NCBI GenBank assembly: GCA_963729625.1
Contig: CAVSOU010000008.1
Location: 960,001 to 1,024,000 of the forward strand
DNA from: an uncultured bacterium
GTDB lineage: Bacteria > Chloroflexota > UBA5177 > JANWHV01
Direction: 5' to 3'
Length of the DNA stretch: 64,000 nt
Made by a program: the position numbers and the translations under genes. Below the pieces are notes generated by a model. The model was not told the DNA's origin. It did not search any database and saw only the letters and a list, made by a program, of their open reading frames with translations. Below are positions 4,805 through 60,295 of this stretch, piece after piece. Position 1 is the stretch's first letter. Each line of letters starts with the position of its first letter.

Positions 4805-4837
4805 ATCCTAGCACCCGAGCATTAGGCCGGCGTTAGG
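4805..4837 (-). promoter_or_regulatory. direct-repeat box plus extended -10 promoter (#1)
   Basis: Minus strand CCTAACG CCGG CCTAATG CTCGGGTGC TAGGAT, upstream of the 4589 gene. Confidence 0.85.
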
Positions 4838-4894
4838 CGCCGCCGCCCTGCTCGAAGCTTGGCCGGCGCCCGCTCCGCGCCCCCGATGGGCACG

Positions 4895-5485
4895 CTATCG
4901 CGTTCCCGCCTTGCAGGCAGGCTGGAACCACTGCGAGTTCCTCGCTCTGGACGGCACCCCCGCACTGGGCCCAAACTCGGTGCTCAGAGAATCGTACACG
5001 TAAGCACGTTGCAGACGTGACGCAAACATGCGCGCGTCGATCATTCGCACGTTGCAGACCATCGGGTGCGAGGCGACCAATGTGACCGGCGCCTGGCGCA
5101 TCGGCCCTCCAGCGCAGCTCTTGGTGCACAGGTCGTAGTTATACGTGCCGACCGCCGATGCCATCGCCAGGGAGTGTCGCGTCCAGCGCAGGTTGGTAAA
5201 GCCGTCGTGGTTGTCGATCGCTATCGTCGCCGGGAAGTGCGGCCAGCTCCAGAGCCTGCCCAGCATCACACCATTGAGAACGTACAGCTCCGGCTGCTGG
5301 ACGGCCACATGCGTGGCCGGCGAACTGGACCATATTGGCCCGCTGGATGTGATACCATCGGCGGACCATCGGGCAGGAGCCACCCGTGCTGCTACCTGTC
5401 CCGCTCCGTCGCCCTGATAAAGTGCAACGCCCATGATCGCCAGGCCGAGCACGGCCAGCCGCTGAGCTCCTCTGGCAGTTCTCAT
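4895..5485 (-). CDS. secreted hypothetical protein with Cys pairs
   Basis: Signal peptide; NLRW...ASAVGT...CTKSCAGG motif. Confidence 0.6.
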   Translation of the reverse strand: MRTARGAQRLAVLGLAIMGVALYQGDGAGQVAARVAPARWSADGITSSGPIWSSSPATHVAVQQPELYVLNGVMLGRLWSWPHFPATIAIDNHDGFTNLRWTRHSLAMASAVGTYNYDLCTKSCAGGPMRQAPVTLVASHPMVCNVRMIDARMFASRLQRAYVYDSLSTEFGPSAGVPSRARNSQWFQPACKAGTR

Positions 5486-5564
5486 CGTCGGGTATCCTCC
5501 CTAATCTACTGGCGTTCGGATCCAGGTGGACGGGCGCGGCGCATTCGCGCCGGTCATCGCGCAC

Positions 5565-5596
5565 ATACTGGCACGCGAGCATAGGCCGGCGTTAGC
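5565..5596 (-). promoter_or_regulatory. direct-repeat box plus -10 (#2, second heptamer one A short)
   Basis: GCTAACG CCGG CCTATG CTCGCGTGC CAGTAT, upstream of the 5485 gene. Confidence 0.65.
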
Positions 5597-5608
5597 CGGC
5601 ACCGACGC

Positions 5609-9368: not shown

Positions 9369-9375
9369 TTCCCTT

Positions 9376-13483: not shown

Positions 13484-13516
13484 AGCATAGCAGCCTAGCA
13501 TTAGGCGAGCGTTAGG
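13484..13516 (-). promoter_or_regulatory. direct-repeat box plus extended -10 (#3)
   Basis: CCTAACG CTCG CCTAATG CTAGGCTGC TATGCT; heads the 13400-11938-9368 operon. Confidence 0.85.
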
Positions 13517-13858: not shown

Positions 13859-13891
13859 CCTAACGGCTGCCTAATGCCTCCGCGCTATAGT
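13859..13891 (+). promoter_or_regulatory. direct-repeat box plus -10 (#4)
   Basis: CCTAACG GCTG CCTAATG CCTCCGCGC TATAGT, upstream of 13953. Confidence 0.85.
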
Positions 13892-13952: not shown

Positions 13953-15813
13953 ATGATCAATTCGCTGAGCACGAGATCACTGTGCCGCGCCGCCTCGCTA
14001 TTGCTTCAACGTGTCCACTCCGCAGCGTTGCATCCGGATGTGCGCACACCTGCTGCGTGGCAACGCGAGCACCCGTGTTACGCGGCAACAAGACGAGGCT
14101 TGGCCGTCGCGGCAGTAGTCAGTGTAGTATCGATTGCGTCTGCTTCAGCACCTACCGGCGCAGCATTCTCCAGCACCGCCGATGCCAGCGCGGGCCAGGC
14201 ACGGAGTAAAGCGCCCTCGGTCACTGTCATTTCAATCAGCACGAGAACCAAGAGCTTCGATTTGCTGGGCAGCACGCAACTGCCACCGAATTGGACGTTA
14301 CCCGCCTACAACGACGCCGCGTGGGATGGGATGACGCCGGTGTCCGCAGATGTCCGCACATGCGTGAGCCAGAACATCGGCGCCTGGCACAACCTTCCCA
14401 CATATTGGGGCGCGTCACCGACTGAAACGTATCTGCTGCGGCAGAGCTTCATCCTCCCGGCGGCCAAGAGCTACTCGGGCAGCCGGATTACGGTAGGGAT
14501 TGACACCTACGTTTTCAGCGGGTCGACCGACACGATTTACGTCAACGGCACGCAAGTGGATCAGCCGAGTCACGAGTTCCTGCAGTCGTACGACATCGGC
14601 CAGCTGCTAGTGGCCGGCAGGAACGTGCTCGCCATCTACGCCAACCCCGCGAGGGACAGCCACACGCGTTTCAACGCACCCTGCAGTGCGGCTACCTTCC
14701 GCATCAATGTCGTTACTGGCAGCGCACGCGGGCACGTGATCGTTCCAAGTACCGCTGGCAAGGTACTCCGCTTCAGCATCAACTCCTCGACCAGAAGCTT
14801 CGATCTCTTGGCAGGAAGTCAACCCCCCCCAAACTGGACTAGCCCGATCTACAATGACGCCGCTTGGCAGAGCATGAGGCCGGTAACCGCAGACGTGCAA
14901 GCGTGCGTGAATCAGAACGTGGGTGCTTGGAACACTTACCCGAGTTACTGGGGCCAGATGCCCACAGAACCCTACCTACTCCGCCATACGTTCTATTTGC
15001 CAAGAGCCAAAGGCTACGGCGGCAGCTTCATCGTCGTAGGTGTGGACACCTACAACTTCAACGGCGCAGCCAATACCATATTCGTCAACGGCACGCAGGT
15101 TGACCAGCCGGGTCACGAGTTCCTGCGAGCTTACGATATCGGCCAACTGCTTTTGCCGGGCAAGAATGTGCTGGCCGTCTATGCAAGCCCATCCGCCGAC
15201 AGTCACTCACGGTTCGGCGTGCCTTGCAGTGCTGCCACGTTCCGGATCAATGCCGTGGCTGTCCAGCCTGGACCAGCGCCAACCGTGCCAACGTCGACGA
15301 GCCGCGTGGTTCGCATCGCAATCGGCCCCAGAACAAAGAGCCTTGACCTTGCGCCGGGCACGCAGCTACCAACCAACTGGATGGAAGTGCGCTACGACGA
15401 CTCCGCCTGGACGGGACTGCAGCACGTCACGGCGGACGTCCAGTCCTGTGTTCCAGCAGAACATCGGTGCATGGCAGCCGCTGCCGGGATACTGGGGCTC
15501 GGCTCCAACTGACGCATATTTGCTGCGCCAGTCGTTCAACTTGCCGGCTGCGAAGAGCTACGGAGGGAGCTTCCTCGTGGTCGGCATCGACACCTATAAC
15601 TTCAATGGCGCGGCAGACCCCATCTTCGTCAACGGTGCACCGGTGGACCAGCCGGGCCACGAGTTTCTACGGGCCTACGACATCGCCCAGCTTCTTGCAC
15701 CTGGCAAGAACGTTGTGGCTATCGACGCCAATCCAGCTTCCGACAGTCATTCGCGCTTCAACGTGCCGTGCAGTGCGGCCACGTTCATGCTGGATGCGGT
15801 CGTGACGCACTAG
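13953..15813 (+). CDS. secreted protein with three tandem galactose-binding/jelly-roll-like domains (frameshift ~15452)
   Basis: Three ~180-aa repeats: TKSFDL..PPNW..YNDAAW...YLLRQSF.LP...IYVNG...L.aG.NVLA...PCSAATF. The third is split between frames at TGTGTTCCAG. Confidence 0.75.
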
Positions 15814-18810: not shown

Positions 18811-20307
18811 TCAACTGGTCGTCGTGTCCTGGCAGCTCCAGCTATAGGGATCGTTGATGTCGCCCACCACGGCCGTCGCGTTCATGTCCGCGAACTGCCA
18901 CTGGCAGGCCTCGTTCACATCGATATCCTCCCGATCGCCGTTGCTGTCGATGCAATGCCAGTCGTAGGCCGTCGAGCCGTCGAGACTGGCGCCCTGTCCG
19001 CCCAGATACTGGCAGTAGCCGTTGAGGTCCAGCGTTCCCAGGTTCGTGCCGGACGTCCCGCTGGATTGGCCCGAGGATGAACCGTCCTCCCATGTCACCT
19101 GCACCGGGTCCGACTGGGCGACCACGTTGCCGTCCACATCCGCGATCTGCGCCACGAAGCTGTCCGTGCCGGCGGCGTCGGCCTCCGCCGGGCCGGAACA
19201 GCTTTCGCCGCTACCGCACCCCGCGATCTGCATGCCGGTGCCCTGGTCGAGGATGACGATGTAGTACGGTGTCGGCCAGACGTCCTGGCTCGCCTGCGCC
19301 GTGAAATTGACGGTGTCACCGGCCTGCACGTCCGTCTGGTCCGCGCTCAGCGTCACGGTCCAGTCCCCGCCATCGTTGCCCTCGTCCGAGCTGCCTACCC
19401 AGGTGATCTGTTGCGGCGAGGACTGGGCCACGACGTTCCCCGACAAATCGGAGACCTCGGCCACATACGATGCGGAGTCCGTGCCGTCGAACGGAATCTC
19501 GGCGGTGCACGCGCTGCCATCCCCGCAGGTCTCCACGGCTTCGCCGCTCGACTGGTCGGTAATCACGATATAGAACGGGGTGAATGCCACATCCAGGCTC
19601 GCATCGGCTGTGAGGTTCACGGTTGTCCCCGCCGGCACGTTGGATGGATCGGAGGCATCCGTGGTGAGGCTGACGGACCAGAGATACGCCGTGTCGTCGA
19701 AGCCAGGTAAGTGGTTGTCAAAGTAGTCGTTAGGACGGCCAAGCGACAGGCTGGCCACCGGATCGTCCGGCAGAACGGCGCCGTAGGTTTGCAAGATCTT
19801 AACTGCTTTCGTCAAGCAGTCGTTCGCGGCCACAGTCGGATGGTGGAGCAGGTCCAGTATCCAGAACCCGCTCGTAGCTTGCTTGCCGACCTCCGTCTCC
19901 GCGTCAGTTACGTCCGCCTTCGGCGGTTTACCGCAGCGGTACTGAAGGTACGCGATACTGGCCGGCCTGCCGTAGGGACTTCCATTCGCGAACGTCTGCA
20001 AAAGGTCATTCCACGAGCCGTGCCTCTCCCAACTGTGTGTCCAGTCCCAACTTGGGTTCGGCTCATACTGCTTAGGATTGTTGTTGTTGGCCTCGGTGCT
20101 GCCGAAAGCCCAATCATTCTCGCCGTCAGCAAAGGCCCAGCCGACGTGCCCAAGGTCGTACACGTCATTCGGCGCATCGATCATGCAGACTCTGGCCCAT
20201 GAAGGGGCGGAACTCGCTGCTCGCGCACGATGGCTGGAAGGGGTTGTGAGCCCGACCAGCCCGGCAAGCACGAGCGCCCACCGGATGCACGCCAATATCC
20301 TTGCCAT
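18811..20307 (-). CDS. secreted protein: putative permuted papain-like domain, 2x Ig-like, Cys-rich C-terminal domain
   Basis: ATG 20307 with GGAGGGAG RBS; GHVGWAF ... NDCL; two W.V.L.aD...V..TA.A...Y.IVI.DQ..G....CG.G..C repeats; LDLNGYCQ...WHC...ACQWQ tail. Confidence 0.7.
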   Translation of the reverse strand: MARILACIRWALVLAGLVGLTTPSSHRARAASSAPSWARVCMIDAPNDVYDLGHVGWAFADGENDWAFGSTEANNNNPKQYEPNPSWDWTHSWERHGSWNDLLQTFANGSPYGRPASIAYLQYRCGKPPKADVTDAETEVGKQATSGFWILDLLHHPTVAANDCLTKAVKILQTYGAVLPDDPVASLSLGRPNDYFDNHLPGFDDTAYLWSVSLTTDASDPSNVPAGTTVNLTADASLDVAFTPFYIVITDQSSGEAVETCGDGSACTAEIPFDGTDSASYVAEVSDLSGNVVAQSSPQQITWVGSSDEGNDGGDWTVTLSADQTDVQAGDTVNFTAQASQDVWPTPYYIVILDQGTGMQIAGCGSGESCSGPAEADAAGTDSFVAQIADVDGNVVAQSDPVQVTWEDGSSSGQSSGTSGTNLGTLDLNGYCQYLGGQGASLDGSTAYDWHCIDSNGDREDIDVNEACQWQFADMNATAVVGDINDPYSWSCQDTTTS

Positions 20308-20391
20308 GCGTTTGCTCCCTCCCAGCCTGACGAGTGATGTTGCTGCCACGTTTTTCTTCGTCTGGACCCCTTCTGGCACGGCAGTGGGCAA

Positions 20392-21147
20392 TTACTGCTC
20401 CTTCGGCGGCGCCGGCCAGCTACTGCTCTGATCTGAGCTCGCCCGCCCAGATCCGACGGAGCGCGGATGCAGCAGGTGCTCCATCTCATCCTGGCTGAGG
20501 GCGCCGCTCGGTCTGCCCATCCATGGCTGCATGGGGCCCGACGCTGAGCCGCCGGCATCCTCGGGCGGCCGTGGCCAGCCGGCCGTGCCTCCCCAAGACT
20601 GCGCGGAGCCGCTCGGCTGCCACGCATGTGCCTGCTGTAGCACCCACGCGTCGCCCGTGACGAGACGCGCGAAGCCAGCCACGGCGAGCACGATGGCCGC
20701 TGCCAGCATCAGCCACAGCCCGGCGCCTGCGCCGATCGACACGTAGCCGCGCAGCCACTGCAGCGCCGAGCTGCTACTCACCGCGGACACGGCGGCGATG
20801 TTGCGCGCGCTGACGGCGATCAGCACCGCCGCTGCCAGGATATCGCCGATGCCCTGGGCCTGGCGGACCTCGCTGCAACGTATGAGAGCCGCCAGCCCGA
20901 TCAGCGCCACGGCGCCGCCCAGTGCGGGGGCATACCAGCCGTCGAGGATCTGACCGTCGAAGCCGCTCCACGAGAAGCTGGTGGTGGTGGTATAGCCATT
21001 GGCGTCCTGGTAGCTGGTCTGCGCGGTGATCCAGGGCAGGAATGCGCAGATCGCCGCGATCACACCTGCCGCCAACGCCGTGATCGTCGGCAACAACGCT
21101 ACCTCCGTCTGGGTGGACGGGACATCGTACGCGCTGCGTGCCTCCAT
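20392..21147 (-). CDS. 4-TM membrane protein (FLPW...DGW...GAGLWL family)
   Basis: ATG 21147 with strong RBS, four hydrophobic segments; paralogs at 32010 and 33739. Confidence 0.75.
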   Translation of the reverse strand: MEARSAYDVPSTQTEVALLPTITALAAGVIAAICAFLPWITAQTSYQDANGYTTTTSFSWSGFDGQILDGWYAPALGGAVALIGLAALIRCSEVRQAQGIGDILAAAVLIAVSARNIAAVSAVSSSSALQWLRGYVSIGAGAGLWLMLAAAIVLAVAGFARLVTGDAWVLQQAHAWQPSGSAQSWGGTAGWPRPPEDAGGSASGPMQPWMGRPSGALSQDEMEHLLHPRSVGSGRASSDQSSSWPAPPKEQ

Positions 21148-21290
21148 TGTCTTTCCCCCTCCTCCCGCCGCGCGCGGCAGGCGCATCGCTACCGCCGGCT
21201 CGCCAGAGCCCCGGTCCATGCATGCGGCCAACCGACCCAGCTTGGGCAAAGTACGGCGTGTCCGCGCGCCGGGTCACTGATGACACGCCC

Positions 21291-21323
21291 ATCCTAGCAG
21301 CCGAACATTAGGCGGACATTAGG
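21291..21323 (-). promoter_or_regulatory. direct-repeat box plus extended -10 (#5)
   Basis: CCTAATG TCCG CCTAATG TTCGGCTGC TAGGAT. Confidence 0.85.
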
Positions 21324-21347
21324 CGTACCAAGATAGCCGCACTAGCC

Positions 21348-21380
21348 TCATATGCGCGCCGTACGGACCTCTGCTACACT
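21348..21380 (+). promoter_or_regulatory. variant box plus extended -10 upstream of the regulator
   Basis: TCATATG CGCG CCGTACG GACCTCTGC TACACT: same 7-4-7-9-6 geometry with degenerate heptamers. Confidence 0.45.
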
Positions 21381-21416
21381 GTCCCGCAGCAAGCCCGATG
21401 CGCCTGGAGGCGGGTA

Positions 21417-23894
21417 GTGTCGAGGGGTCAGGAGCCACGAGCACGTGTCCACGGGAAGCAACGCCGGGCCGATCCGGCGCGCGGATCCGGTCGCGACACA
21501 TCGAAGCTTGCCGTGGGCGCGGATCCGATTTCCGCGCAGCATGCCCTGCCCGTGCTCCACGTGCGGACGCTCGGCGGGTTTTCGCTACTGCGTGGTGAAG
21601 AGTCGCTCATAACCGAGGCGTGGCGCGGTGATCGGCTCTGGCCGCTCTTCACCGGCCTGCTCAGTGCAAGCAACCACCGGCTCAGCCGGGACCAGGCAAT
21701 CGAGCTTCTCTGGCCGGATAAGGAGCTGGCGGACCCGGCGAACAGCCTGCGCGAAGTACTGAGCAAGCTTCGTCGGCTGCTGGCCGGCGGCTCCTCGGCG
21801 CCAACTCAGGCCTATGTGCGGAGCGACGGTGCATTCCTGGTCCTGGTGTCCGGTGCGGTGCTGATCGATGCCGATATGTTTCTTGCGGAGGCGCAAAGGG
21901 CATCGGCTACCCGGGACCTGACGGCATGCCAGACAGCGATCGATCTGTATGCCGGCGAGTACCTGCCGCAGGGGACAGTCGAACCGCTCTCCCGGCACGC
22001 CGCACTCGTGCGCGGACGTCGGAGTGCCTTGCGCCATGCCGCGAGCGACGTGCTCGCCCTGGCCGCCGAGCTCTGCGATGGAACGGACCTACGTCGTGCC
22101 GCCGCGTATTTGCAACGTGCATTCGGGCTGAATCCCAGCGCCGAGGAGAAGGCGCGCCGGCTCATGACCACGTATGCGCGCATTGGCGAGCTCGCGGCCG
22201 CGCAGGAGGTGTTCGGCACGCTGACACGCACGCTCGCGCACCAGGGCGTGCCGCCGAGCCTGGAGACAACCCGGCTGCGCGACTCGCTGCTGGAAAAAAG
22301 CGCACCTCGCGGCACCTTGCCCCAGGAGGGCCAGGCCCCGGCAGGCTTGCTCACCTGCCTGGTCGTGCTCGGAGACGGAGCGACTCCCGCCCCTGTGGAA
22401 GCCGTCGTAGCTGCGCACCACGGGAGCAGCGCCGATGCGGACCCCACGGATCGGTGCTGGCGCTTCAGCTTCTCCGATCCACATGAGGCCCTCGCCGCCG
22501 CCTTGACGCTCACCTCGCCCCCGCCCTCCGCTGCCATTCCCCGTGGCATGCGCGCCGCTGTCCATACCGGGCAAACCGGATATCGGCCTGAGCACGATGC
22601 GGGCTTCGCGCTGGCCAAGATGCTTGCCGAGATTGCACACGCCGGACAGGCATTGGTGTCGCACGTGACGTATGCGGTCGCAGGCGCCTCGCTGCCGGCA
22701 CACATGGCACTGCCCAGGCTTGATTCCTATGAGCTGCCCTACAGCTCGGAGCCGGTTGCCGTCTACCAGCTCAGCAAAGCGAACTCGGTCGTCACCTACC
22801 CGCCGCTGCGAGCACGTCGTCACCGGCCGCATAATCTGCCGGCTCCGATCACGGCCTACGTGGCGCGGCCGCGACTTCAGGCAAGGCTCGGCGCGCTGAT
22901 CGCTCCCGCCGCGGGACGCAGCACCCGACTGTTAACGCTGACCGGCGTGGGCGGCGGCGGCAAGACGCGCCTGGCAGTGGAGCTGGCGCGTGACCTGCTG
23001 CCGCGGTTTCCCGACGGCGTCTGGCTGGTCGAGCTCGCCTCGCTGTCCGAGCCGCGCGATGTGCCGGCACAGATCGCGCGCGTGCTCGGCCTGCGTGAGG
23101 AGCGCGGCGTTCCGATAATGGATTCCGTTGCCGCCTATCTGCGCGCCCGCGAGCAGCCCTTGCTGCTGGTGCTCGACAACTGCGAGCATCTGGTGGACGC
23201 ATGCGCTCAAGCCACGGCGGTGTTGCTCCAGGCCGGCGAGCTGGTCCACGTGCTGGCCACCAGTCGCGAACGGCTGCGCATGCAAGGTGAGCGCGCCGAA
23301 GAGGTGCCGCTTCTGTCGACGCCAATCCCGCGCGACGGCGGCTTTCCGCTCGCGGATATCGGCGGGGCGGAGTCCGTCCGGCTATTCTGCACGCGCTCCA
23401 CGGAAAGCGTGCCCGACTTTGCGCTGTCCGCCGCGAACGCGCAGGCTACTGCCCGCATCTGTGCACGGCTCGATGGGATCCCGCTGGCTATCGAGCTCGC
23501 GGCGGCGCAGCTTGTCCGCCTGCCCCTCACGGAGATTGTGGATGGCCTTGACCGCTCCATCGGGCTGTTGGCCGGCGGCAATACCGGCGCCTTGCCCCGG
23601 CACCAGACGCTTCACGCGGCGATCGACTGGAGCTATCGGCTGCTCAGTGCGGACGCGCAAACCTTATTCCGGAGACTCGCGGTCTTCGCCGGAGGCTGGA
23701 CGGCCCCCGCCGCTCAGGAAGTGTGCGGACTGAGAGGCCTCCATCCGGACGACGTCGGGCCGCTACTGCAGGAGCTCCTCCTGGCGTCGCTCGCGATCCG
23801 CTACAAGGCCGGTGACCAGCATCGCTACCGTATGCTCGAGCCCGTGCGACAATATGCCCTGGGTCAGCTCCATGGTCAGCTCGACACCGCTTGA
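21417..23894 (+). CDS. AfsR/SARP-like regulator: wHTH, BTAD, degenerate class III cyclase-like, NB-ARC/STAND ATPase; C-terminal TPR region missing
   Basis: LHVRTLGGF, LSRDQAIELLWPD, IDLYAGEYL, EEKARRLM (BTAD); RAAVHTG (cyclase-like); HNLPAPIT, LTGVGGGGKTRLA (Walker A), LLLVLDNCEHL, LDGIPLAIELAAA, RHQTLHAAIDWSY. Start codon uncertain. Confidence 0.9.
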   Translation: MSRGQEPRARVHGKQRRADPARGSGRDTSKLAVGADPISAQHALPVLHVRTLGGFSLLRGEESLITEAWRGDRLWPLFTGLLSASNHRLSRDQAIELLWPDKELADPANSLREVLSKLRRLLAGGSSAPTQAYVRSDGAFLVLVSGAVLIDADMFLAEAQRASATRDLTACQTAIDLYAGEYLPQGTVEPLSRHAALVRGRRSALRHAASDVLALAAELCDGTDLRRAAAYLQRAFGLNPSAEEKARRLMTTYARIGELAAAQEVFGTLTRTLAHQGVPPSLETTRLRDSLLEKSAPRGTLPQEGQAPAGLLTCLVVLGDGATPAPVEAVVAAHHGSSADADPTDRCWRFSFSDPHEALAAALTLTSPPPSAAIPRGMRAAVHTGQTGYRPEHDAGFALAKMLAEIAHAGQALVSHVTYAVAGASLPAHMALPRLDSYELPYSSEPVAVYQLSKANSVVTYPPLRARRHRPHNLPAPITAYVARPRLQARLGALIAPAAGRSTRLLTLTGVGGGGKTRLAVELARDLLPRFPDGVWLVELASLSEPRDVPAQIARVLGLREERGVPIMDSVAAYLRAREQPLLLVLDNCEHLVDACAQATAVLLQAGELVHVLATSRERLRMQGERAEEVPLLSTPIPRDGGFPLADIGGAESVRLFCTRSTESVPDFALSAANAQATARICARLDGIPLAIELAAAQLVRLPLTEIVDGLDRSIGLLAGGNTGALPRHQTLHAAIDWSYRLLSADAQTLFRRLAVFAGGWTAPAAQEVCGLRGLHPDDVGPLLQELLLASLAIRYKAGDQHRYRMLEPVRQYALGQLHGQLDTA

Positions 23895-24049
23895 TGCCCA
23901 CGAGTTGCATGCGCCCAGTGGCGCCTACGATCGGCTCTCCGGAAGACGCGAAGAAAGGAGCGCACGCAAGACCGGCCGTGTTCCATAGCGCGCTGGCGGC
24001 GACCATGCGCGAGCGGGTCGCAAATGAGCAGAGGTTCGGGTGGTACGGC

Positions 24050-24190
24050 GTGAGCAGTGAAGCGCGACAGGTGCACGTGGCGCACCGCGACTACTACCTC
24101 CGGCCCGCCGAGGAGGCCCTCGCGGCGAGGCAAAGCGAGCTGCAGGAGCAATGGCTGGCACCGCTCGCGGCAGAAGACGGCATCATGAAG
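24050..24190 (+). pseudogene. detached remnant of the regulator's post-ATPase helices
   Basis: EARQVHVAHRDYYLRPAEEA...QEQWLAPLAAEDG resembles the H..YYL.LAE.A...Q..WL..L..E.dN segment that normally follows RQYA in this family. Confidence 0.55.
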
Positions 24191-24213
24191 GACGTGCCGG
24201 CCTGTGGGTTCCG

Positions 24214-24246
24214 CCTAACGCCCACCTAACGTCCCGCTGCTATAAT
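24214..24246 (+). promoter_or_regulatory. direct-repeat box plus perfect extended -10 (#6)
   Basis: CCTAACG CCCA CCTAACG TCCCGCTGC TATAAT, upstream of the kinase. Confidence 0.9.
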
Positions 24247-24335
24247 TGGGCTGTCTCATGGGGCATAATACCCTGTCCAGCACTCCTGCGCGAGTTTGCG
24301 ACTTGCGGCCGGGCCGCGGGACTGGAGCCTGATCG

Positions 24336-26780
24336 GTGAGCCTGCCTACTGGCACCATGGTAAGCGGCTACCGCATCCTCTACGAGGCTGGGCGGGGCGG
24401 CATGGCCGTGGTCTACCGTGCTCGGCAGGAGAACCTCGGCCGCGATGTGGCTCTCAAGATGCTGTCGAGCACACTGGCCTTCGACCCTGGCTTCCTAGCC
24501 CGCTTTCATCAAGAGGCCCATTCAGTGGCCAGCCTACAGCACCCTGCCATTCTGGTCATCCATGACGTAGGGGCCTTCCAAGAGCAGCCGTACCTGGTGA
24601 CCGAGTTCATCGAGGGCGGCACACTGGTGAAGTACCTTGGAACGCCGCAGCCCCTCGGAACGGTTGTCCAGCTTCTGGGTCCCATCGCCTCAGCCCTCGA
24701 CCACGCCCACGCGAGGGGAATCCTGCATCGCGACGTCAAGCCCGCGAACATCCTGCTTCGCCAGGACGGCGGCCCGGTGCTGGCAGACTTTGGCCTGGCG
24801 GTGGCGGCTGAAGCCAATCGGCGCCTGACCCGTACCGGACTTACCATGGGCACACCCGAGTACATGGCGCCCGAGCAGGCGACGCAGCCCTCGAGTAGTC
24901 TCACACCCGCCGTTGACCGCTACTCCCTTGCCGTGATCGCTTATGAACTGCTCACCGGACGAGTGCCGTTCGAAGGGCCGACGCCGGTAGCAGTGGTCAT
25001 GGCGCAGGTCACCCAGGCGCCTCCCCCGCCGCGTGCCCTTAACCCTGCGCTCGCGCTCGGCTTGGATGCCGTTCTGCTCAGTGGTTTGGCCAAGGAGCCG
25101 GATCACCGTTACCCCAGCGCCACGGCCTATATCCAGGCCCTCGTTGCGACTGCTAACGCCGATGCACCGGAGGCTATGAATGCAGCCCTCCCACCCACGG
25201 TCGCCGTCGCCGCAAACGCGATCCCTCGAGCCGCCGGTGCCATGGCGGGCCCGCCCGCGCCAGCCGGAGCTGCGATCGTCAGCGCGCTGCGGGCGCCGGG
25301 GTCGGGGCCGGCCGACCCAATCCTCATCAACTGGCAGCCGACGCAGGTGGCCGGACGGCTGCCGCGACGGCACAGGCGCGTGTACGCTCTGATGGCAGCG
25401 ATTTTCGTGGCCACACTGGCCGTTGCGGTGGCTGGTGTGTTCGCCTGGCACGGCGGCATTCGCCTGGCCGGCAACACACCTGCGTCGGTAACGCGAAGTG
25501 CGAGACCGCCCACATCCACTGGCCAGACGACGCGGATCGCAATCGTAGTTCCGGCTGGGTCCGGTACGGCCAGCCCTGGGCCGACGGATGTTCCCACCGC
25601 GTCCGCGAGGCCCTTGCCATCGACAACTCTTCTGGCACAGCCATTGTGGGTGGCGGCATTGTCCCCGGGTGAGATCACGACTGTCGCAGGCAACAGCCGA
25701 ACGCGAATCGACAGCAACGGTGTCGATGTGGGTACGTACACGGGCAATGGTGGCCTCGCCAAGGATGCCGGTTTTTCTCGCCCGTTCAGCGTGGCCGTTG
25801 ACGCCCTGGGTAATCTCATTGTCGCTGACACTTTCAACAATCGCATTCGGAAGATCGCGTTGGACTCGGGCATCGTCACTAACATCGCCGACAATGGCGA
25901 CTACCATTTCAGTGGTGACGGCGGGCTAGCTATAGATGCGGGGATAAGTCCCAACGACGTAGCACTCGATCAGTTAGGAAACCTGTATATCGCAGACGCC
26001 GCCAATCATCGTGTGCGGAAGGTGAGCGCAAGCACCGGCATCGTCACTACCGTTGCCGGTACGGGCACGTACGGCGACAGCGGTGACGGGGGCCTAGCCA
26101 CGCAGGCGGAGATCAGCTTTCCCAATTACGTGGCTTTCGACAATGAAGGGAACATCTACTTCGTTGATTTCGGTGCGGAGCGCGTGCGGAAGATAGACGT
26201 GAATACCGGCTACATCTCCACGGTTGCCGGCGACGGCGTTGTTCGGAAGGATACCTACGGAATCTGGATCGGCAGCTACAGCGGCGACGGCGGCCCGGCC
26301 TAGGAGGCGGGACTCAATCGCCCAAGCGGTGTGGCTGTTGACCAAGCAGGGAATATCTATATCGCGGATCGCGACAACAATCGCATCCGTATGGTCCAGG
26401 CAGCAACGGGGGCTATTTCGACGGTAGCTGGCACCGGGGTCGCAGGCTTCAGTGGCGACGGTGGCCCGGCGGCGGCAGCCGAACTGTCGCAGCCAAGCTG
26501 TGTGATACTCGACACGCGCGGCGATCTCTACATATCGGACACAGGTAATCAGCGGGTCCGCATGGTGGATGCAGCAACCGGCGCAATCACGACGATCGCC
26601 GGTGCCAGGCCGATCGACAGTAGTGGCGACGGCGGATATGGCGGCGATTATGGTGCCGCCACCGACGCGCAGTTGAATCAACCTCTCGGCCTTGCGATGG
26701 ATCGGATGGGGAATCTCTACATAGCAGACAGTCTCAACAACCGAGTGCGCGTGGTGCGCGGAGTAGCGTCGGCCAACTGA
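24336..26780 (+). CDS. Hanks-type Ser/Thr protein kinase, TM, extracellular NHL propeller (in-frame TAG at 26301-26303)
   Basis: GRGGMAVVY, VALK, HRDVKPANIL, DFG, GTPEYMAPE, a TM helix, then NHL repeats continuing in the same frame past the TAG (GPA*EAGLNRPSGVAVD). Confidence 0.9.
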
Positions 26781-37266: not shown

Positions 37267-37299
37267 CCTAACGCTCACCTAATGCGCGGGTGCTAGGAT
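37267..37299 (+). promoter_or_regulatory. direct-repeat box plus extended -10 (#9)
   Basis: CCTAACG CTCA CCTAATG CGCGGGTGC TAGGAT. Confidence 0.88.
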
Positions 37300-40300: not shown

Positions 40301-41318
40301 AACCAATTTACTGAGTGCGGACTACCCCAGCCCCTCGCACACGATCACGGATGTAGAAGTGCTCGATCGTGGTTCGCATCCTGGTGGGAACTGGTCTATC
40401 ACGATGCACTCCCCAGCACAATTCCTTGTCACGGATCCCAATGGCCAGGTGACAGGATATGTCGCGAGCTCCGGAACCACAATTAGCAACATTCCGGGTG
40501 CGTATTACTCGATCTCTCAAGGGCTGTCGGACGATACGGGGGTCGACCCTCCTTTACCTGACATTCCGTTCTTCGAAAACAATTCGCCGATTCCAGGTAC
40601 CTACACGGTCCAGGTGATCGGCACCGGATCGGGACCATATACGCTCGATTTCTCTTCATCTAGCGACTCGGGATCCATCTCTCAGTCAAGTATTAGTGGC
40701 ATCACGTCGGCCGGCCAGGTGGACACGTTCGAGGTTCAAGTGAGCGGCGGCACGAGCATTATCCAGCAGCCGACGCCCCTGCCAACGTCCAGACCGTATA
40801 TACCAGTAGTCAGCATGCCAACCGCCACGTCCACACCAACCGCCACTGCCACAAGCGTGCATGCGACGAATACTGCTACCGCAACCGCCACCGCGACCGC
40901 GATACCGCCGACGGCCACGAGTACGCGCGTGCCGCCCACGGCAACTGCCACCCCCGTGCCGACGCTGATCATCTACCACAACGCGCGCACGGAAGTGGGC
41001 GGCCGCAAAGCGGACTGCACCATCGCAGGCAACACAAAGGGCGCACATGAGCCAGGCTGCGAGATCGTGTCCGGCATTTCGGCGCCCGGCGCCACGGTCG
41101 TGTATACGCTGAAGTACGCGGACGGGGCAACGCAAACGTTCACGGACACGGCCGACTTCCGCGGGCACTCGCTGCACCCGTTCAATGTCGCCTACATGCC
41201 GCCGAAGGGCAGCAAGCACGGGCAGCCGGCGACGGTGGCCTACATCACGGTCACGGCGACGCTGAAAAACGGCACCTCGCTTGGTCCGCTGGCCGCGCGG
41301 TTCGCCGTCATCCGCTGA
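37383..41318 (+). pseudogene. large secreted protein (permuted papain-like, Ig-like, GATase-like alpha/beta, C39-like peptidase, P/T linker, C-terminal domain) interrupted by a transposase fragment
   Basis: The 5' ORF reads to LAGDP at ~38990 and the 3' ORF resumes SADELGDAN at ~39507. GHVGWAF...SDCL; SGCALTSVA...DPGTLN...HWVVV...IADP. Confidence 0.75.
38994..39504 (+). mobile_element. internal fragment of ISAzo13-family transposase
   Basis: AQFEHIN...ISVDTKKKELVGDFKNGGREWRPKG...PYGVYD...DHDTAAFAV...ITADGGGSNGSRVRLWK...VCHYP. No IS ends seen; flanked by CCGTTA at 38988 and 39502. Confidence 0.88.
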
Positions 41319-41650: not shown

Positions 41651-42616
41651 GTGGCGCCGCCAGCCCTCGACTGCCATTGCGGCCATCCGCCTAATGCCCG
41701 CCTAATGCTCGGGTGCTATACTCGGCCCGTCACGCTGAAATGCACGAGCTTGCCAGGCCTGGTTCGGCCGCGCCGCGACTCGCCGGCCGGTGATCGACGG
41801 GCAAATGGAGAGGGTCGGAATCCATGGCAGAAGGAAGCAGAATCAAGAATTCGCAGCGGTAGTGGACGCCAGCACGGCCCGGAAGCAGACGGACCGATCC
41901 CGTCGGTCTTCTCCATTCTCCTTGCGACACTCGCACTCGTGCTGGCAACAAGCACCGCCGGCTGCTCGATCGGAGGGGGCGGCTCCAACGGCGCCGCCGC
42001 CACGCCGACACCGCGACCGCCGACTCCCCGGCCGGCCCCCACGCGCGTCGTGGTGGCCCAGCCGGCTGTCTGGAAGGTCATTGCGCCACCCGGTCCCGGG
42101 CAGCTCCCGGTGGCGCCGCCGAAAGGCAGCTATCCGTTTGCACGAAGCTTCGGCGGCCTGCTCGTCTACGTGCCCGGCACCCTGGCGCCGGTGCCCGCCT
42201 CGTGGCAGACGTACAGCAACGTCATGCGCGGCGTCAACATGTCGTACCCGCCGCGCTGGATCCAGCAGGGGGTTGCCGGCGCGGACGGCGCGCTCTTCCT
42301 CCCGCCGCCAACGACACAATCGCGTTCACAGCCGGGCGGACCACCGGCCATCGGAGTCCTGTGGTCGGCCGGCGCGGCCGGCGCGCGCAAGGCCGTCCCG
42401 CTTCCGGCGCTTGGCGACGGCATGGTGCTTGATGGCGGCATCATCAGCGCCGGGAAGGTCAGCGGCCACCTCTACACCATCGGCGGCACACCCGGCGTGG
42501 CAGCGAGGGTCGAGGTGCCCGCGAAGGGCGGCATGGTCACGCTGTTTGTTCGCGCCGACGATCCGGCCATGCTCGACGTGTTTCGCCAGATGCTTTCTTC
42601 CTTGCGGGTGGGGTGA
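41651..42616 (+). CDS. putative lipoprotein (true start likely downstream of 41722)
   Basis: Hydrophobic stretch ending LATSTAGC, P/T linker, WQTYSN...MSYPPRW (PsbP-like start). The nominal ORF start lies upstream of promoter #10. Confidence 0.65.
   Translation: MAPPALDCHCGHPPNARLMLGCYTRPVTLKCTSLPGLVRPRRDSPAGDRRANGEGRNPWQKEAESRIRSGSGRQHGPEADGPIPSVFSILLATLALVLATSTAGCSIGGGGSNGAAATPTPRPPTPRPAPTRVVVAQPAVWKVIAPPGPGQLPVAPPKGSYPFARSFGGLLVYVPGTLAPVPASWQTYSNVMRGVNMSYPPRWIQQGVAGADGALFLPPPTTQSRSQPGGPPAIGVLWSAGAAGARKAVPLPALGDGMVLDGGIISAGKVSGHLYTIGGTPGVAARVEVPAKGGMVTLFVRADDPAMLDVFRQMLSSLRVG
41690..41722 (+). promoter_or_regulatory. direct-repeat box plus extended -10 (#10)
   Basis: CCTAATG CCCG CCTAATG CTCGGGTGC TATACT. 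Confidence 0.88.
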
Positions 42617-55854: not shown

Positions 55855-55887
55855 AGCCTAGCACAACGGCATTAGGCCGGCATTAGG
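55855..55887 (-). promoter_or_regulatory. direct-repeat box plus extended -10 (#11)
   Basis: CCTAATG CCGG CCTAATG CCGTTGTGC TAGGCT. Confidence 0.88.
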
Positions 55888-56398: not shown

Positions 56399-56431
56399 CC
56401 TAATGGCCGGCTAATGGTCGGCTGCTATGGT
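56399..56431 (+). promoter_or_regulatory. direct-repeat box plus extended -10 (#12), separated from its gene by IS1380
   Basis: CCTAATG GCCG GCTAATG GTCGGCTGC TATGGT. Confidence 0.8.
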
Positions 56432-56593
56432 GTATCGCGACATGTGGCGATGGTGCGAGCCAGTGCTTCTGGCGTCGGCTTGGCATCGTGTCGTGCACAC
56501 CAGGAAGCCGCGCTCGTTGCACGCACCAGAGTGGACAGCTGGGCTCGCTCCAACCGGCTGGGCAGGACGCCCGGGACAAGGAGCTCCCGCTAA

Positions 56594-58341
56594 CCTGGAT
56601 TATGCGGGACCCCTGAAGGAAGCGAGCTAAGCAAGGTTGAGGGGAGGCTCGTCGCGGCCCGCATCGCGTCGAGGTAATGTGCGCCGGCATGCAGAGGGGG
56701 CCTGGTGCGGCGGCAGGATCCAGCGTGCGTCCAGCGGTGCGTGGCTGGGCTCGCTGGTGGGGCAGTTGGCGCGGGGAGGACGGCGTGAGGGGTCGTACCG
56801 CGACAGGGACAGTCGCGGTGTCGGCAGCGATCGGCAGCAGCGGGACGGATTAGCGGAGGAACGGCGGCGCGTGGCCGGGCGGCTGCGCACCGAGCAGGCT
56901 CCAGAGGGCCTGACCAGGATGGCTGCTGGCCAGGTGCAGGCGGATGCGGTGCAGCCCTTCCCGCACCCGGCCGCCGATCTTGATGAGCTGGAGCCGCAGG
57001 GTATCGAGCTGCAGACGGGGCAGGCCGCGGGCAGTCAGCCAGCGTCGGAGGGTATCGAGGAGCCAATAGGCGGCGGCGTGCAGGATGAGGCGGCACTGGT
57101 TGGCCCAGAAGCGATGGTCGCTCAGGCGGTCGGCGAAGCAGGCGAGCTTGATGTCCTTGATCCACAGTTCCGGGGTGCCCCGATCGACATACCAATCGTA
57201 GAGGTCTGTCGGCGCGTCGGTGCGGCTGGTGACGACGAAGCGGACATTGGGCCCCTTGGCCAGGGCTTCGGTCTTGTAGACCACGCGCCGTGCGCGGTCC
57301 CAACTCTCGGCCTGGTAGGTGGTCTCGCCGCACAGGCGGACCTTCTCCGCGGCGGTGGCCTCGCGCTGGGCCTGGGCCTGCGCCAGCAGGGGCGCGGCCA
57401 GGGCTGCCAGGCGGGCATTGGTGCCCAGACCCAGGGTGTAGGTGATATGGTGGCGCTCGCAGAACTGGTAGATTCGGGGCGTGGCGCCCGCTGCGTCAGC
57501 GCGGATCTCGATCTGCACGCCGGGCCAGCGCTGCCGAAAGGCCCGGACTAGCACGCGCAGCACCGTAATCACCCCGCGGCTGCCGTGCACCGTGCCCGGG
57601 CGCAGGATGGCGGTGATCAGCTGGTCGGTCTCGCCATCGAAGACGAGCAGCGGGTAGTACTGGTGCTGGCGGTAGTACCCGTGGTACGCCGCCCCTTCCT
57701 GGTGCCCGTGCGTGGGGTCATCCGTGCTGTCGATGTCCAGCAGAATGTGCCGAGGCACGCCGTCCTGTTCCCTCGCCACCAGGTACACCTCCAGGAGGGC
57801 GTGGGCCAGGTGGCGACAGGCTTGCCGGTCCACGCTGTTCTCCAGGCGGCTGAAGGTGGACTGGCCGGCCAGCGCAGGACCACTCTCCGGCAGACGCCCG
57901 CAGACCATCTTGAGCAGGGGGTCGTGGCGCAGGGTGTTGGCATCGTTCTGGTCCTCGTACCCGCAGGCAATCTGGAACACGCGCTGGCGGACCAGACCCT
58001 CCAGGGAGTAGCGGATGTGCCGCTGGCGGCGCTCCGGCAGGCTCGCTGCCAGCCCGGCACACAGTCCCAACACCGCGTCGGCCTTGGCGAGCCAGGGCAG
58101 GCCGCCATCGCTGGTCAGGCGGCCACCATCAAAGAGGGCCTCGAGCGCCAACCCGGTCTGGGTGGCAAAGTGATAGCGCTGTGTGGCAGACTGAGTAGCC
58201 ATAGGGTTCGCTCCGCTCGTTGGTCGTCGTCTAAGAACTTGACCATAAGGGAGCGAACCCTAGCAATCAACCACGCTCAACGGTTCGTAGCCTGAAACCT
58301 GCCTCCCTGCGGCTCAGCTGCTCGTTCCCGCATAATCCTGG
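56594..58341 (-). mobile_element. IS1380-family insertion sequence
   Basis: Ends CCTGGATTATGCGGGA and TCCCGCATAATCCTGG; flanks CTAA and CTAG (imperfect target duplication). Confidence 0.9.
56850..58202 (-). CDS. IS1380-family DDE transposase
   Basis: FDGGRLTSDGGL, GYEDQND, LDIDSTDDPTHGHQEG, IRADA, YVDRGTPELWIKDIK, TLRLQLIKIGGRV. Confidence 0.93.
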   Translation of the reverse strand: MATQSATQRYHFATQTGLALEALFDGGRLTSDGGLPWLAKADAVLGLCAGLAASLPERRQRHIRYSLEGLVRQRVFQIACGYEDQNDANTLRHDPLLKMVCGRLPESGPALAGQSTFSRLENSVDRQACRHLAHALLEVYLVAREQDGVPRHILLDIDSTDDPTHGHQEGAAYHGYYRQHQYYPLLVFDGETDQLITAILRPGTVHGSRGVITVLRVLVRAFRQRWPGVQIEIRADAAGATPRIYQFCERHHITYTLGLGTNARLAALAAPLLAQAQAQREATAAEKVRLCGETTYQAESWDRARRVVYKTEALAKGPNVRFVVTSRTDAPTDLYDWYVDRGTPELWIKDIKLACFADRLSDHRFWANQCRLILHAAAYWLLDTLRRWLTARGLPRLQLDTLRLQLIKIGGRVREGLHRIRLHLASSHPGQALWSLLGAQPPGHAPPFLR

Positions 58342-58368
58342 CTAGATGGAAGGTAATAGGAGGATGAT

Positions 58369-60081
58369 ATGACCAGCGGTCTTCACGTCCTGCAAAGTTG
58401 CCGACGATTGCCGCAATCCGCGGCTGGCGCAGCACTGCTGCTACTCTTGCCTTTGCTCCCTACTCATGGCTCAGCAATTCAGGCGACCGGAACAGGTCTT
58501 GTCCTGGCAAAGAGCAGTGCTGCCATGACTTGGGCCCGCCGAGCTACCAGCACAACTGTCGATCTGTACAGTGTCAGCTGCCCGACCGCGAGGGTTTGCG
58601 TGGCCGTGGGCTACAGGCCGGGCTCGCAGCCGCAGCGCGACGGATTCGCGACCATCCTGGTCAGCGCGGACGGCGGCGCCACGTGGCGCAATCGTACCTC
58701 GGGCGCCGGCCGAGCGCTCTCCAGCAGCAGCCAGCTGCAGAGCGTCGACTGCCCGAGCGTGACCTCCTGTGTAGCGGTCGGCTACACGCATGGCCGGACG
58801 AGCTGGAACGGCACCACCCTGGTCCTGACCAGCTCGAACGGGGGCAGAACGTGGTCTCGCCACGGCCCGAAGGGGACGTACTCGCTGGATGGCGTCAGTT
58901 GCCCGAAACCCCGCGTCTGCGTGGCCGTATCCAACCAGTCACCGTCCCCGGGGATCCTCAGGACTACGGATGGCTGGACCCGGTTCACGGCACGGAGCAT
59001 CCATCTCGACGATGCTCCCTTGTTCAGCGTCGACTGCCGTCTTCCCACCTGCGTGGCGGTAGGCCACTACGGCACTATCGTCACCAGCGCGGATAGTGGA
59101 ACCACCTGGAGAATCCAGCGTCGATCGCCAACCGCGAGCGGCCTCGCGACCGAGAGCTACACAACCGTGACCTGTACAAGTGTGCGCGAGTGCGTGACGG
59201 TCGGCGCGGTGTGGGACTCCAGAAGCCGGAGATTCGTGCGGGGGTTGCTCTTGACCACGGTCGACGGAGGCCGTAGCTGGAGCAGGCAGCCGGTAGCGAT
59301 GACGAACCAGGCCAATGGGGTGAGCTGTCCAAGCAGGACGACCTGCGTGCTCGTCGGCGATCACGGCGCCATCTTCGTCGGCGCGGAGGGCGGTACAACC
59401 TGGCGGAAGCCAGGGTCGGGCACGAACCGAGATTTGTACAGGGTGAGCTGCCCCAATCCGCACCAGTGCGTGGCCGTGGGCAAGGGAGGCACCATTCTGC
59501 TCGGCCGCACTCACTCCACCGGCGCCATACCTAAGCCCAAGGTGAAGGTAACCGGCCCGGCGACCAAGGTCGTCGTGTTCCATCCAAGCGGTGTGCGCCG
59601 CGATATCGGGCAGGGCGATTGCTTCCATAGCTCTACCGTGGTCGCGCGGCCCAATGCGTGGCGGTGCGATAGTCCGGAGGGAATTGAAGATCCGTGCTTC
59701 AGCGCATCGTCCGCGGCCATGACCGTGCTTTGCGACGCCGGCCCCTTCAATCCACTGAAAGACCCCCGTGGCGATCTGCTCCATCTGACGAAGGCGCTGC
59801 CTGCGCCCCGAAGTCCTCGCGCCGGCGGTTCCCCCTGGATTTTCGAGCTCGCCGGCGGCCTGATGTGCCAGACGTATTCCGGCGTTCCGCTCCAGATCAA
59901 CAACTCCTCGGGAGGAATCGCCGGGTTCGTCTTCACACGCTGCTCGGACGGGCACTTCCTGTGGAAGGTCAACCGCGGCGCCGTGTGGACCGCCCAGGAG
60001 ATCTCGGTGTCCCGTGTCCCGGCCGGTGGTTTCCCCATCACACGCGCTATCAGCGTCAAGATCAGCAGAATCTGGGTGTAG
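58369..60081 (+). CDS. secreted Cys-rich BNR-repeat propeller plus C-terminal Cys-rich domain
   Basis: AGGAGG RBS, signal peptide; L.SVSCP....CVAVG...S.DGG.TW repeats; RPNAWRC....DPCF tail. Confidence 0.82.
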   Translation: MTSGLHVLQSCRRLPQSAAGAALLLLLPLLPTHGSAIQATGTGLVLAKSSAAMTWARRATSTTVDLYSVSCPTARVCVAVGYRPGSQPQRDGFATILVSADGGATWRNRTSGAGRALSSSSQLQSVDCPSVTSCVAVGYTHGRTSWNGTTLVLTSSNGGRTWSRHGPKGTYSLDGVSCPKPRVCVAVSNQSPSPGILRTTDGWTRFTARSIHLDDAPLFSVDCRLPTCVAVGHYGTIVTSADSGTTWRIQRRSPTASGLATESYTTVTCTSVRECVTVGAVWDSRSRRFVRGLLLTTVDGGRSWSRQPVAMTNQANGVSCPSRTTCVLVGDHGAIFVGAEGGTTWRKPGSGTNRDLYRVSCPNPHQCVAVGKGGTILLGRTHSTGAIPKPKVKVTGPATKVVVFHPSGVRRDIGQGDCFHSSTVVARPNAWRCDSPEGIEDPCFSASSAAMTVLCDAGPFNPLKDPRGDLLHLTKALPAPRSPRAGGSPWIFELAGGLMCQTYSGVPLQINNSSGGIAGFVFTRCSDGHFLWKVNRGAVWTAQEISVSRVPAGGFPITRAISVKISRIWV

Positions 60082-60262
60082 CGTCGCGCGTCAATGCCCG
60101 CCAGTAAGAAAGCATTCGTGTACCGAAACCCATGCTGCTTGCACCGGGCCGAGTCGCCTTCCAGCGTGCATGCGGTAGCGAACCGTGTGTACTCCCACGC
60201 CCAGAGTAGCTCTTGCAGGCCCGAAATATCCGGACAGTCCGACATGCTAAGGAGCGTGGCCA

Positions 60263-60295
60263 CCTAATGCCCGCCTAATGGCAGCATGCTATGCT
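60263..60295 (+). promoter_or_regulatory. direct-repeat box plus extended -10 (#13)
   Basis: CCTAATG CCCG CCTAATG GCAGCATGC TATGCT. Confidence 0.88.

Follow-up and report, generated by a model that had tools for sequence, protein, structure and literature searches.

A 64,000-nucleotide stretch of DNA from an uncultured bacterium of the Chloroflexota (NCBI GenBank assembly GCA_963729625.1, contig CAVSOU010000008.1, positions 960,001 to 1,024,000; hereafter the window) carries thirteen copies of a promoter box in which two heptamer repeats, CCTAAYG-N4-CCTAATG, stand at a fixed distance from a -10 hexamer. The boxes are predicted to be binding sites of activators that carry a domain of the Streptomyces antibiotic regulatory protein (SARP) type and are encoded on the same genomic island, and would make up an activation regulon of the AfsR type in an apparently non-actinobacterial host, a reading to which we assign a probability of roughly 0.85. 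The initial annotation of this DNA had proposed a SARP-type winged helix-turn-helix (wHTH) activator as the reader of the boxes. This is supported by the register that they share with the afs box of AfsR, by their confinement to the island and by their recurrence beside orthologues of the regulator gene 21417. That a single activator serves the whole regulon was also proposed; the SARP type stands, but the island encodes two SARP-domain candidates.

Architecture of the promoter box

In the window the heptamer pattern has ten exact matches; tolerating one mismatch brings the number to twelve, and tolerating a second leaves it unchanged. The consensus first described thus fits 10 of the 13 copies exactly and 12 of the 13 with at most one mismatch, but not every copy, whereas all 13 coordinates and strands were given correctly. 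The box at 24214 has CCTAACG in both repeats and the box at 56399 has GCTAATG as its second repeat. The site at 5565-5596 (minus strand) is damaged, its second repeat being short by one A and its -10 hexamer reading CAGTAT, as had been noted. A relaxed pattern of box plus -10 element matched the window 12 times, whereas 300 third-order Markov simulations of the window yielded no match.

Alignment of the 22 full copies of the island, with the hexamer placed at -12 to -7, showed conservation from -41 to -20. The four N4 positions are strongly biased (C15/G6, C17/T5, C13/G7 and G19/A3) and the two bases preceding the first heptamer are C in 20 and G in 19 copies, so that the repeat unit is 11 bp long. 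The box is therefore 22 bp, two repeats of S-R-C-C-T-A-A-Y-G-S-Y with the core RCCTAAYG, and what was taken for an N4 'spacer' consists of the end of repeat 1 and the beginning of repeat 2. Free variation of N4 and of the first six bases of the following N9, as claimed in the initial annotation, is refuted; only about three N9 positions (-19 to -17) are free. Downstream of these follow TG(C) and a TAnnnT hexamer. The TGC reported at the end of N9 is better understood as an extended -10 element, with TG in 20 of the 22 full sites and CGC at box 4. Several full sites match TATAAT at 5-6 of 6 positions. In all 22 the period is 11 bp, as at SARP promoters, and the distance from the end of the 3' heptamer to TAnnnT is invariably 9 bp. 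None of the sites offers a usable -35 element; the best TTGACA match is 1-3 of 6 in 21 of the 22 sites and 4 of 6 in one.

The 20-bp flanks have a mean identity of 5.6 and 6.2 of 20, expected being 5.4. Such near-background identity rules out a mobile repeat or miniature inverted-repeat transposable element. In a few box pairs, however, 11-12 of the 13 variable positions agree, or 13 of the 20 bases downstream, which indicates that some promoter-leader modules were probably copied. The view of the box as a selected binding site and not a mobile repeat is upheld as to the mobile repeat, but duplication as well as selection shaped the copies. All 22 full copies lie outside called genes except that at 24214, which overlaps the final 16 bp of an 83-codon TPR-remnant open reading frame (ORF), while only 22% of the island is intergenic. 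A same-strand ORF starts 25-220 bp downstream in 12 of the 13 window sites, the start behind 41690 being uncertain. The description of the boxes as lying in gaps and pointing into transcription units thus holds for most; it fails for 24214 because of this overlap and for 56399, which is cut off from its gene by an insertion sequence (IS) element.

Confinement to a genomic island

The genome scan suggested in the initial annotation was carried out on the 5.41-Mb host genome (G000; 87% complete) with a position weight matrix trained on 12 window sites. Above 12 bits it gave 22 matches, 21 of them on the contig of the window (C8) between 926,858 and 1,020,295 and one on contig C13. Counting mismatches, the same stretch of C8 holds 21 exact sites and one with a single mismatch, and C13 holds one; two-mismatch sites are absent genome-wide and the 22 three-mismatch hits elsewhere are at background level. 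Sites are thus confined to one region and its duplicate on C13, and the regulon is not window-wide but island-wide, with 23 boxes (22 full and the damaged copy) in 108 kb.

The region is bounded by an intact tRNA-Gly(CCC) gene at C8:920041 and by a copy of its 3' part at C8:1027948; the duplication (C8:920070-920144 versus 1027948-1028022) is identical at 74 of 75 bp. Judged from these sequence features, the boxed stretch is a tRNA-integrated genomic island of 108 kb. None of the eight Phage_integrase matches of the genome falls in the island, the search having covered tyrosine and not serine recombinases, and its GC content is 65.3% against 63.2% for the genome. With no tyrosine integrase, with split and IS-interrupted genes and with a GC content barely above that of the genome, the island looks old and immobile. 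The C13 segment (C13:1-4963) is a 94% duplicate of window positions 58336-63315 around box 13, in which the box is intact and the FHA-ABC gene is broken; it represents either a second copy or a co-binned strain. The box was found in none of 40 relatives, including 4 congeners that are 83-95% complete. Among 400 genomes of the phylum, 5 have one exact match compared to 3 for a reversed control.

Partial 3' copies of the tRNA-Gly gene were also observed at G000:C4:45612 and, in a congener (G001), at C16:1188517-1188693 and C16:1194281-1194323, which suggests that in this genus the tRNA serves as a hotspot of integration. The host has other boxes with an 11-bp period and similar geometry, two TGTTACGG sites at G000:C15:339 and 1308 (minus strand) and a TGTCAT site at C7:621454 (plus strand). 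The boxes of C15 and C7 each apparently precede small secreted-protein genes. The TGTCAT repeat was considered as a host pho box and dropped, no phosphate genes lying behind it.

Candidate activators

Two of the 11 BTAD matches of the genome fall in the island, and both proteins have the wHTH-BTAD architecture with BTAD above cut-off. Candidate activator 1, the product of gene 21417, lies between boxes 5 and 6; candidate activator 2 lies 1.6 kb to the right of the window and starts 300 bp beyond the kinase gene of the box 13 unit. The island has no OmpR-type regulator (0 of the 9 full OmpR-type matches of the genome, and no Trans_reg_C match) and none of the 15 sigma factor matches of the genome. 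An alternative sigma factor as reader was rejected, since none is encoded on the island and the -10 element is housekeeping-like.

The structural model of the SARP domain of 21417 (residues 46-328) has a pLDDT of 90.8, and a Foldseek search with it matched AfsR (E 1e-8) and EmbR (E 3e-6), the sole matches with E <0.001. A single-protein PDB search with the N-terminus missed AfsR; profile and fold searches recovered it. The middle region has a weak profile likeness to class III cyclases (seven of the eight matches listed, E 0.07-0.9), and its single-sequence model (pLDDT 37.5) is unusable. The protein ends after NB-ARC, without a TPR tail, as do homologue P0004 and the orthologue in metagenome locus L129. 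Since a 65% homologue also has 825 amino acids and the L129 protein ends likewise, the TPR-less protein is a conserved form. The possibility that it is a pseudogene fragment was considered and rejected, and the gene encodes an intact conserved protein of 825 amino acids. Among sequencing runs, no RNA data set was listed for positions 20300-26400, which speaks neither for nor against expression. With 35.9 bits against the cut-off of 1430 of NCBIfam NF053617 (AfsR, SARP-NOD-TPR) it is not an AfsR equivalog. Candidate activator 2 aligns to AfsR residues 29-283 by sequence (E 5e-7). In a tree of 69 of 140 SARP domains the two island regulators group together (0.95), with weak support for deep branches.

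AfsR contacts DNA with W74, R87, T88, S91, R92, R94 and K95, and 21417 largely keeps the backbone contacts (W, R, S, R, R). We consider the 21417 protein the likelier reader of the boxes, on fairly favourable odds. Candidate activator 2 may read them too, which would not exclude 21417, although we rather doubt it.

Several smaller observations concern these regulators. A short TPR remnant (window 23978-24229, plus strand) follows 21417, a detached TPR ORF of 351 amino acids lies at C8:938562 (L002:13562-14617, plus strand) and another is found at L129:4446-5042. The TPR sensor part may have become detached from the regulator; it could be in decay, or it could still work in trans. Upstream of 21417, at approximately 21339-21371 (plus strand), a TG-extended TACACT is preceded at the same spacing by two weak repeat look-alikes (4-5 of 7), possibly a low-affinity autoregulatory site. 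Three chromosomal BTAD regulators (C10:982685-983698, C10:834356-837562 and C8:568579-571866), unlike the island pair, have an extra Cys/His-rich N-terminal domain; in the homologues P0005 and P0006 this domain is PF20586.

Comparison with known SARP systems

To our knowledge, activation by SARPs has been structurally solved only for antibiotic control in Streptomyces. The afs box of the Streptomyces coelicolor afsS promoter (PDB 8K60, 8HVR, 8JKE) consists of two 11-bp repeats at -40 to -30 and -29 to -19, of which the first 8 bp are contacted, and a dimer of the AfsR SARP domain displaces sigma region 4 from the -35 region (PMC10936776). In the afsS scaffold the -10 element ends at -7 (bioRxiv 10.1101/2023.09.04.556155), so that the distance from the contacted 8 bp to the hexamer is 9 bp, exactly as for R-CCTAATG here; the repeat-to--10 distance of 8 bp given in the papers is counted differently (PMC10936776, PMC11301090). 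The two systems are alike in the wHTH and BTAD fold, in a 22-bp box of two repeats placed in the same register over a poor -35 region, in the NB-ARC/NOD domain of the large regulator form and in kinases encoded nearby (PMC10936776, PMC11301090). They differ in the repeat sequence, the TG-extended -10 element and the base-reading residues of the regulators. Moreover, 21417 has an extra degenerate cyclase-like domain and no TPR tail, and about 23 near-identical promoters are collected on one island with surface and signalling targets and no biosynthetic cluster. A further difference is that no WhiB or RbpA match was found in the host genome (87% complete), and this fits a non-actinobacterial host.

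EmbR of Mycobacterium tuberculosis has non-antibiotic, envelope-related targets and is linked to the Hanks kinase PknH and to an FHA-FHA-ABC exporter of the Rv1747 type, as in the island. For EmbR, no fixed box that recurs in a comparable way over many promoters is known to us, no search in depth having been made. It shares the SARP fold (PDB 2FEZ, 2FF4) and has its own FHA domain, whereas the FHA domains of the island are on two ABC exporters inside the regulon. The pathway-specific small SARPs are cluster-situated activators with 11-bp-period repeats just 5' of the -10 element, as in the island, but control few promoters of antibiotic clusters in actinomycetes. Candidate activator 2 resembles them (ActII-ORF4, DnrI and RedD; PMC10936776) in having neither NOD nor TPR. 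On sequence grounds, the system is a member of the SARP domain family, and neither an AfsR equivalog nor one of the biosynthetic-cluster SARPs.

By analogy with AfsR, the system very probably works like AfsR with its afs box, and box binding, activation and the positions of the transcription starts are predicted from that precedent. Two SARP monomers would bind the 11-bp repeats head to tail over the site of the missing -35 element and, like AfsR, present a surface on which sigma region 4 and core RNA polymerase can dock. The housekeeping holoenzyme could thereby open a promoter that has a TG-extended -10 element only. About 23 promoters would be switched on together. They would drive secreted beta-propellers and zinc-ribbon membrane proteins, a pair formed by an alpha-2-macroglobulin and a penicillin-binding protein, and glycan-active enzymes, as well as Ser/Thr kinases and FHA-FHA-ABC exporters. 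That ATP and the island kinases provide the input is a guess.

wHTH-BTAD regulators in general

The flanks of 117 wHTH-BTAD genes in 115 loci were analysed. The motif played no part in the choice of these loci, which rested on a protein or BTAD match: 88 come from matches in 20 genomes of the class of the host, 20 are regions of genome G044 and 7 are from three Gemmatimonadales genomes, motif hits having originally led to G044 and the latter three. Both regulator genes of the island and all loci fetched with the box in view were left out. A 7-bp repeat (at least 6 of 7) with period 11, ending 9 bp before TAnnnT, was sought within 600 bp upstream and 400 bp downstream, some flanks being cut by locus ends. 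Such a box accompanies 26 of the 117 genes, 15 of them with perfect repeats. Control periods of 9, 10, 12 and 13 gave 0, 0, 2 and 4 genes, none perfect, period 22 gave 6, and random host genes gave 16 of 1000. The signal peaks at spacers of 8-11. Among the 28 boxes, 17 are upstream and point away from the regulator, 9 are downstream on the same strand, 2 point toward the regulator and 0 are convergent; the main arrangements match boxes 5 and 6 around 21417. The heptamers vary between regulators, partly tracking the recognition helix. K or R at the position of AfsR T88 goes with GGAA in 5 of 5 cases against 0 of 21 others, and H or Y at the position of R87 goes with AG in 3 of 5 cases but in none of 21 others, both being post hoc comparisons among kin that are not independent.

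Tentatively, at somewhat less than even odds, we propose that the wHTH-BTAD proteins outside the Actinobacteria are a large and barely studied family of sigma-adapting activators, each with its own fixed-geometry box of 11-bp period and a partly readable helix-to-heptamer code. The island would stand at the extreme of this range, as a self-contained programme of 108 kb that was once mobile and comprises surface proteins, kinases and FHA proteins, and whose ~23 promoters are switched as one, as in an alternative-sigma regulon, by a conserved TPR-less SARP-cyclase-ATPase; the same box would serve dispersed regulons of 12-23 sites in a subgroup of the Gemmatimonadales.

In one report SARP regulators are called exclusive to Streptomyces (PMC11301090). 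We found no SARP or BTAD regulon for Chloroflexi/Chloroflexota or Gemmatimonadota, and no SARP island with kinases and propellers, in a literature search that lay outside subscription journals and supplements, which may hold motif predictions. A near-invariant regulon of 23 promoters offers a test set for the SARP mechanism in another phylum and on non-biosynthetic genes. If the geometry is family-wide, the targets of thousands of unannotated BTAD regulators could be read from DNA. The box furthermore brings many uncharacterised secreted proteins together in what is probably a single envelope programme, and pairs of activator and box that need no -35 element could serve as orthogonal switches.

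Occurrence in other organisms

A metagenome scan by the box alone gave 16 loci. There is some redundancy (L120/L121; L129/L132/L133) among the 11 loci with 59-68% GC, all of which encode homologues of island proteins, with best matches of 40-68% identity. In the low-GC loci L123, L124, L126, L127 and L134 no island homologue was found at the thresholds used. L128 and L129/L132/L133 encode orthologues of 21417 with 47-51% identity and a near-identical recognition helix, NSLREVL(S/C)(K/N)LR in L128 and L129, where the box is on the divergent side of the regulator gene. L135 has three boxes, placed before orthologues of the box 13, box 10 and 47921 genes, and L122 has one box before a DUF3160 gene. 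A metagenome search with P0004 gave no locus, and viral contigs gave 4 single box matches, none with a wHTH match.

Across the genome collection 21 exact heptamer-box matches were found, 12 of them in the Gemmatimonadales; 4 of the 21 are near a wHTH-BTAD gene. Three Gemmatimonadales genomes (G041, G042 and G043; L015, L019, L024, L050-L061) contain 23, 12 and 17 dispersed sites, respectively, of the form CTAACG-N5-CTAACG-N9-TAnnnT, with 0 for the reversed control. Nearly every site inspected is intergenic, the gene behind it often being predicted to encode a secreted protein or a lipoprotein, and L050 has two tandem wHTH-BTAD genes, each with a box directly upstream. A single site was found in only 3 of 60 other genomes of the phylum. 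The boxes of this subgroup apparently form an undescribed genome-wide regulon. In L016:10001 (deltaproteobacterial) and L029:5398 (Krumholzibacteria), CTAAC-type repeats, four in a row in L029, stand before phosphate-binding-protein genes and are a probable non-canonical pho box.

Alternative explanations

Several findings weigh against activation of the boxes by an island SARP. Several of the target genes have been split or carry IS insertions, and part of the circuit may therefore no longer work in this strain. In L120/L121, L125 and L040 the box is divergent from another SARP with the helix LRYTL on a separate branch, that of L120 being a full SARP-NOD-TPR protein, which makes the choice of reader less certain. 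Two of the 21 exact matches precede phosphate-binding-protein genes and one an OmpR-type regulator gene; the heptamer alone is thus no proof of a SARP. The base-reading T88 and R92 of AfsR are E and K in 21417 and Y and R in candidate activator 2, a difference that is expected because the repeat sequence differs. Finally, 91 of the 117 homologous genes have no such box in the flanks examined.

The boxes of OmpR/PhoB-family regulators, which are activated by two-component phosphorylation, are 7-bp repeats (pho box, PmrA box) whose 11-bp period replaces the -35 element and whose T-x-A core is in register with the island box; the island heptamer is one base from the PmrA box. A chromosomal regulator of this family could therefore be the reader, with the island SARP genes as passengers. 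OmpR-family wHTH proteins bind side by side in the same mode (PMC11301090), the genome holds 9 full OmpR-type matches, and the heptamer does occur before phosphate-binding-protein genes (L016, L029) and an OmpR-type gene (L022). Yet targets in the core genome, and sites next to its own gene, would be expected of a core regulator, and no site with at most two mismatches exists outside the island and its duplicate, nor before the one PBP_like_2 gene of the genome. Neither a linked receiver-wHTH regulator nor core-genome targets were found. The absence of the box from all 40 relatives, 4 congeners included, and its travelling with SARP orthologues in other organisms also make this explanation very improbable. 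It is equally improbable that the copies mainly descend from one promoter-leader cassette by gene duplication and are now activator-independent promoters or relics in a decaying island. TG-extended -10 promoters can function without a -35 element, the island has many paralogues and broken genes, and the similar box pairs described above would be explained. Flank identity near background, almost invariant repeat cores, fixed spacing and retention of the box before orthologues that are only 40-68% identical as proteins argue against it.

A SARP-domain protein might also bind the boxes and repress, by covering the -35 region of extended -10 promoters that would be active without it, or with one paralogue antagonising the other. 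The position of the box at about -41 to -20 is typical of repressors (PMC11301090), the two paralogues have different helices, and basal activity is plausible given TG in 20 of 22 sites and several near-perfect TATAAT hexamers. The fixed 9-bp distance in all 22 sites and its peak across the family, however, are expected for polymerase contact and not needed for a steric block, and AfsR activates in the same register (PMC10936776). Repression is thus improbable as well, if marginally less so than the other two, and activation by an island-encoded SARP is the preferred reading.

Predicted target genes

The boxes of the window and the units behind them are listed in Table 1. By Pfam and hydropathy, the predicted targets on the island are secreted or membrane-anchored beta-propellers (BNR/YCF48, NHL, Vgb, Kelch, WD40), zinc-ribbon membrane proteins, DUF3160 and SH3 proteins, a GH3 glycosidase and an SGNH/DUF459 protein. 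An alpha-2-macroglobulin gene adjoins a transglycosylase-transpeptidase gene, and signalling is represented by three genes or gene fragments for Ser/Thr kinases together with two FHA-FHA-ABC exporters. The second NHL-propeller gene of the box 11 unit is interrupted by an IS3-type element. No polyketide synthase, nonribosomal peptide synthetase or similar Pfam family was found among 86 ORFs scanned (some flanking the island), a scan that left out the first 650 amino acids of the alpha-2-macroglobulin gene and a few short ORFs. The box-driven set is probably a programme for sensing at, or protection of, the cell envelope, a role that is guessed.

Table 1 Promoter boxes, downstream units and candidate activators (window positions unless a contig is given)
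Feature	Position	Strand	Description
Box 1	4805-4837	-	TG-extended -10 TAGGAT; heads 4589-1192, secreted proteins without Pfam match
Box 2, damaged	5565-5596	-	precedes signal-peptide ORF of 196 amino acids (5485-4895)
Box 3	13484-13516	-	heads WD40/PD40 propeller, DUF3160 and split Kelch-propeller genes (13400-5609)
Box 4	13859-13891	+	CGC in place of TGC; divergent to box 3; precedes repeat protein of 519 amino acids (13953-15512)
Box 5	21291-21323	-	divergent from regulator gene 21417; heads membrane, secreted and zinc-ribbon/BNR genes (21147-16014)
Candidate activator 1	21417-23894	+	825 amino acids; wHTH + BTAD, degenerate cyclase-like domain, NB-ARC/AAA ATPase (Pfam)
Box 6	24214-24246	+	perfect TATAAT; just 3' of regulator gene 21417
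Box 6 unit	24336-26780; 26973-29420	+	Ser/Thr kinase-NHL (split); FHA-FHA-ABC exporter
Box 7	33899-33931	-	heads zinc-ribbon membrane, secreted and BNR-propeller genes (33733-30557)
Box 8	34070-34102	+	divergent to box 7; heads membrane-anchored protein of 589 amino acids and GH3 glycosidase (34216-37164)
Box 9	37267-37299	+	precedes secreted-protein gene 37383-41318, broken by transposase fragment at about 39000-39504
Box 10	41690-41722	+	heads genes up to 47212 (SH3/Vgb-propeller, BNR lipoprotein); L135 has an orthologous unit with a box
Box 11	55855-55887	-	heads secreted NHL-propeller genes 55657-48835 and zinc-ribbon gene
Box 12	56399-56431	+	divergent to box 11; IS element between box and BNR gene 58369-60081
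IS element	56580-58345	-	DDE_Tnp_1_4 transposase 56850-58202; >99% identical to five copies elsewhere in genome
Box 13	60263-60295	+	heads zinc-ribbon-FHA-FHA-ABC exporter 60321-62972
Box 13 unit, continued			membrane protein; Ser/Thr kinase (from 63663, past window end)
Candidate activator 2	G000:C8:1025559-1026905		outside window; SARP and cyclase-like parts only, ATPase-less

Unboxed toxin-antitoxin-like pairs, ParE with RHH and a PIN-like ORF with an AbrB/MazE antitoxin, were also observed in the island (window 29923-30492; L003:7721-8477) and may stabilise it. A protein of 301 amino acids (L002:1914-2819, minus strand; G000:C8:926914-927819) has no Pfam, NCBIfam or Atlas match. In L128 and L129 its homologue, which has a box, stands next to the regulator gene in divergent orientation and is followed by an MFS gene; the protein is probably the core target of the circuit.

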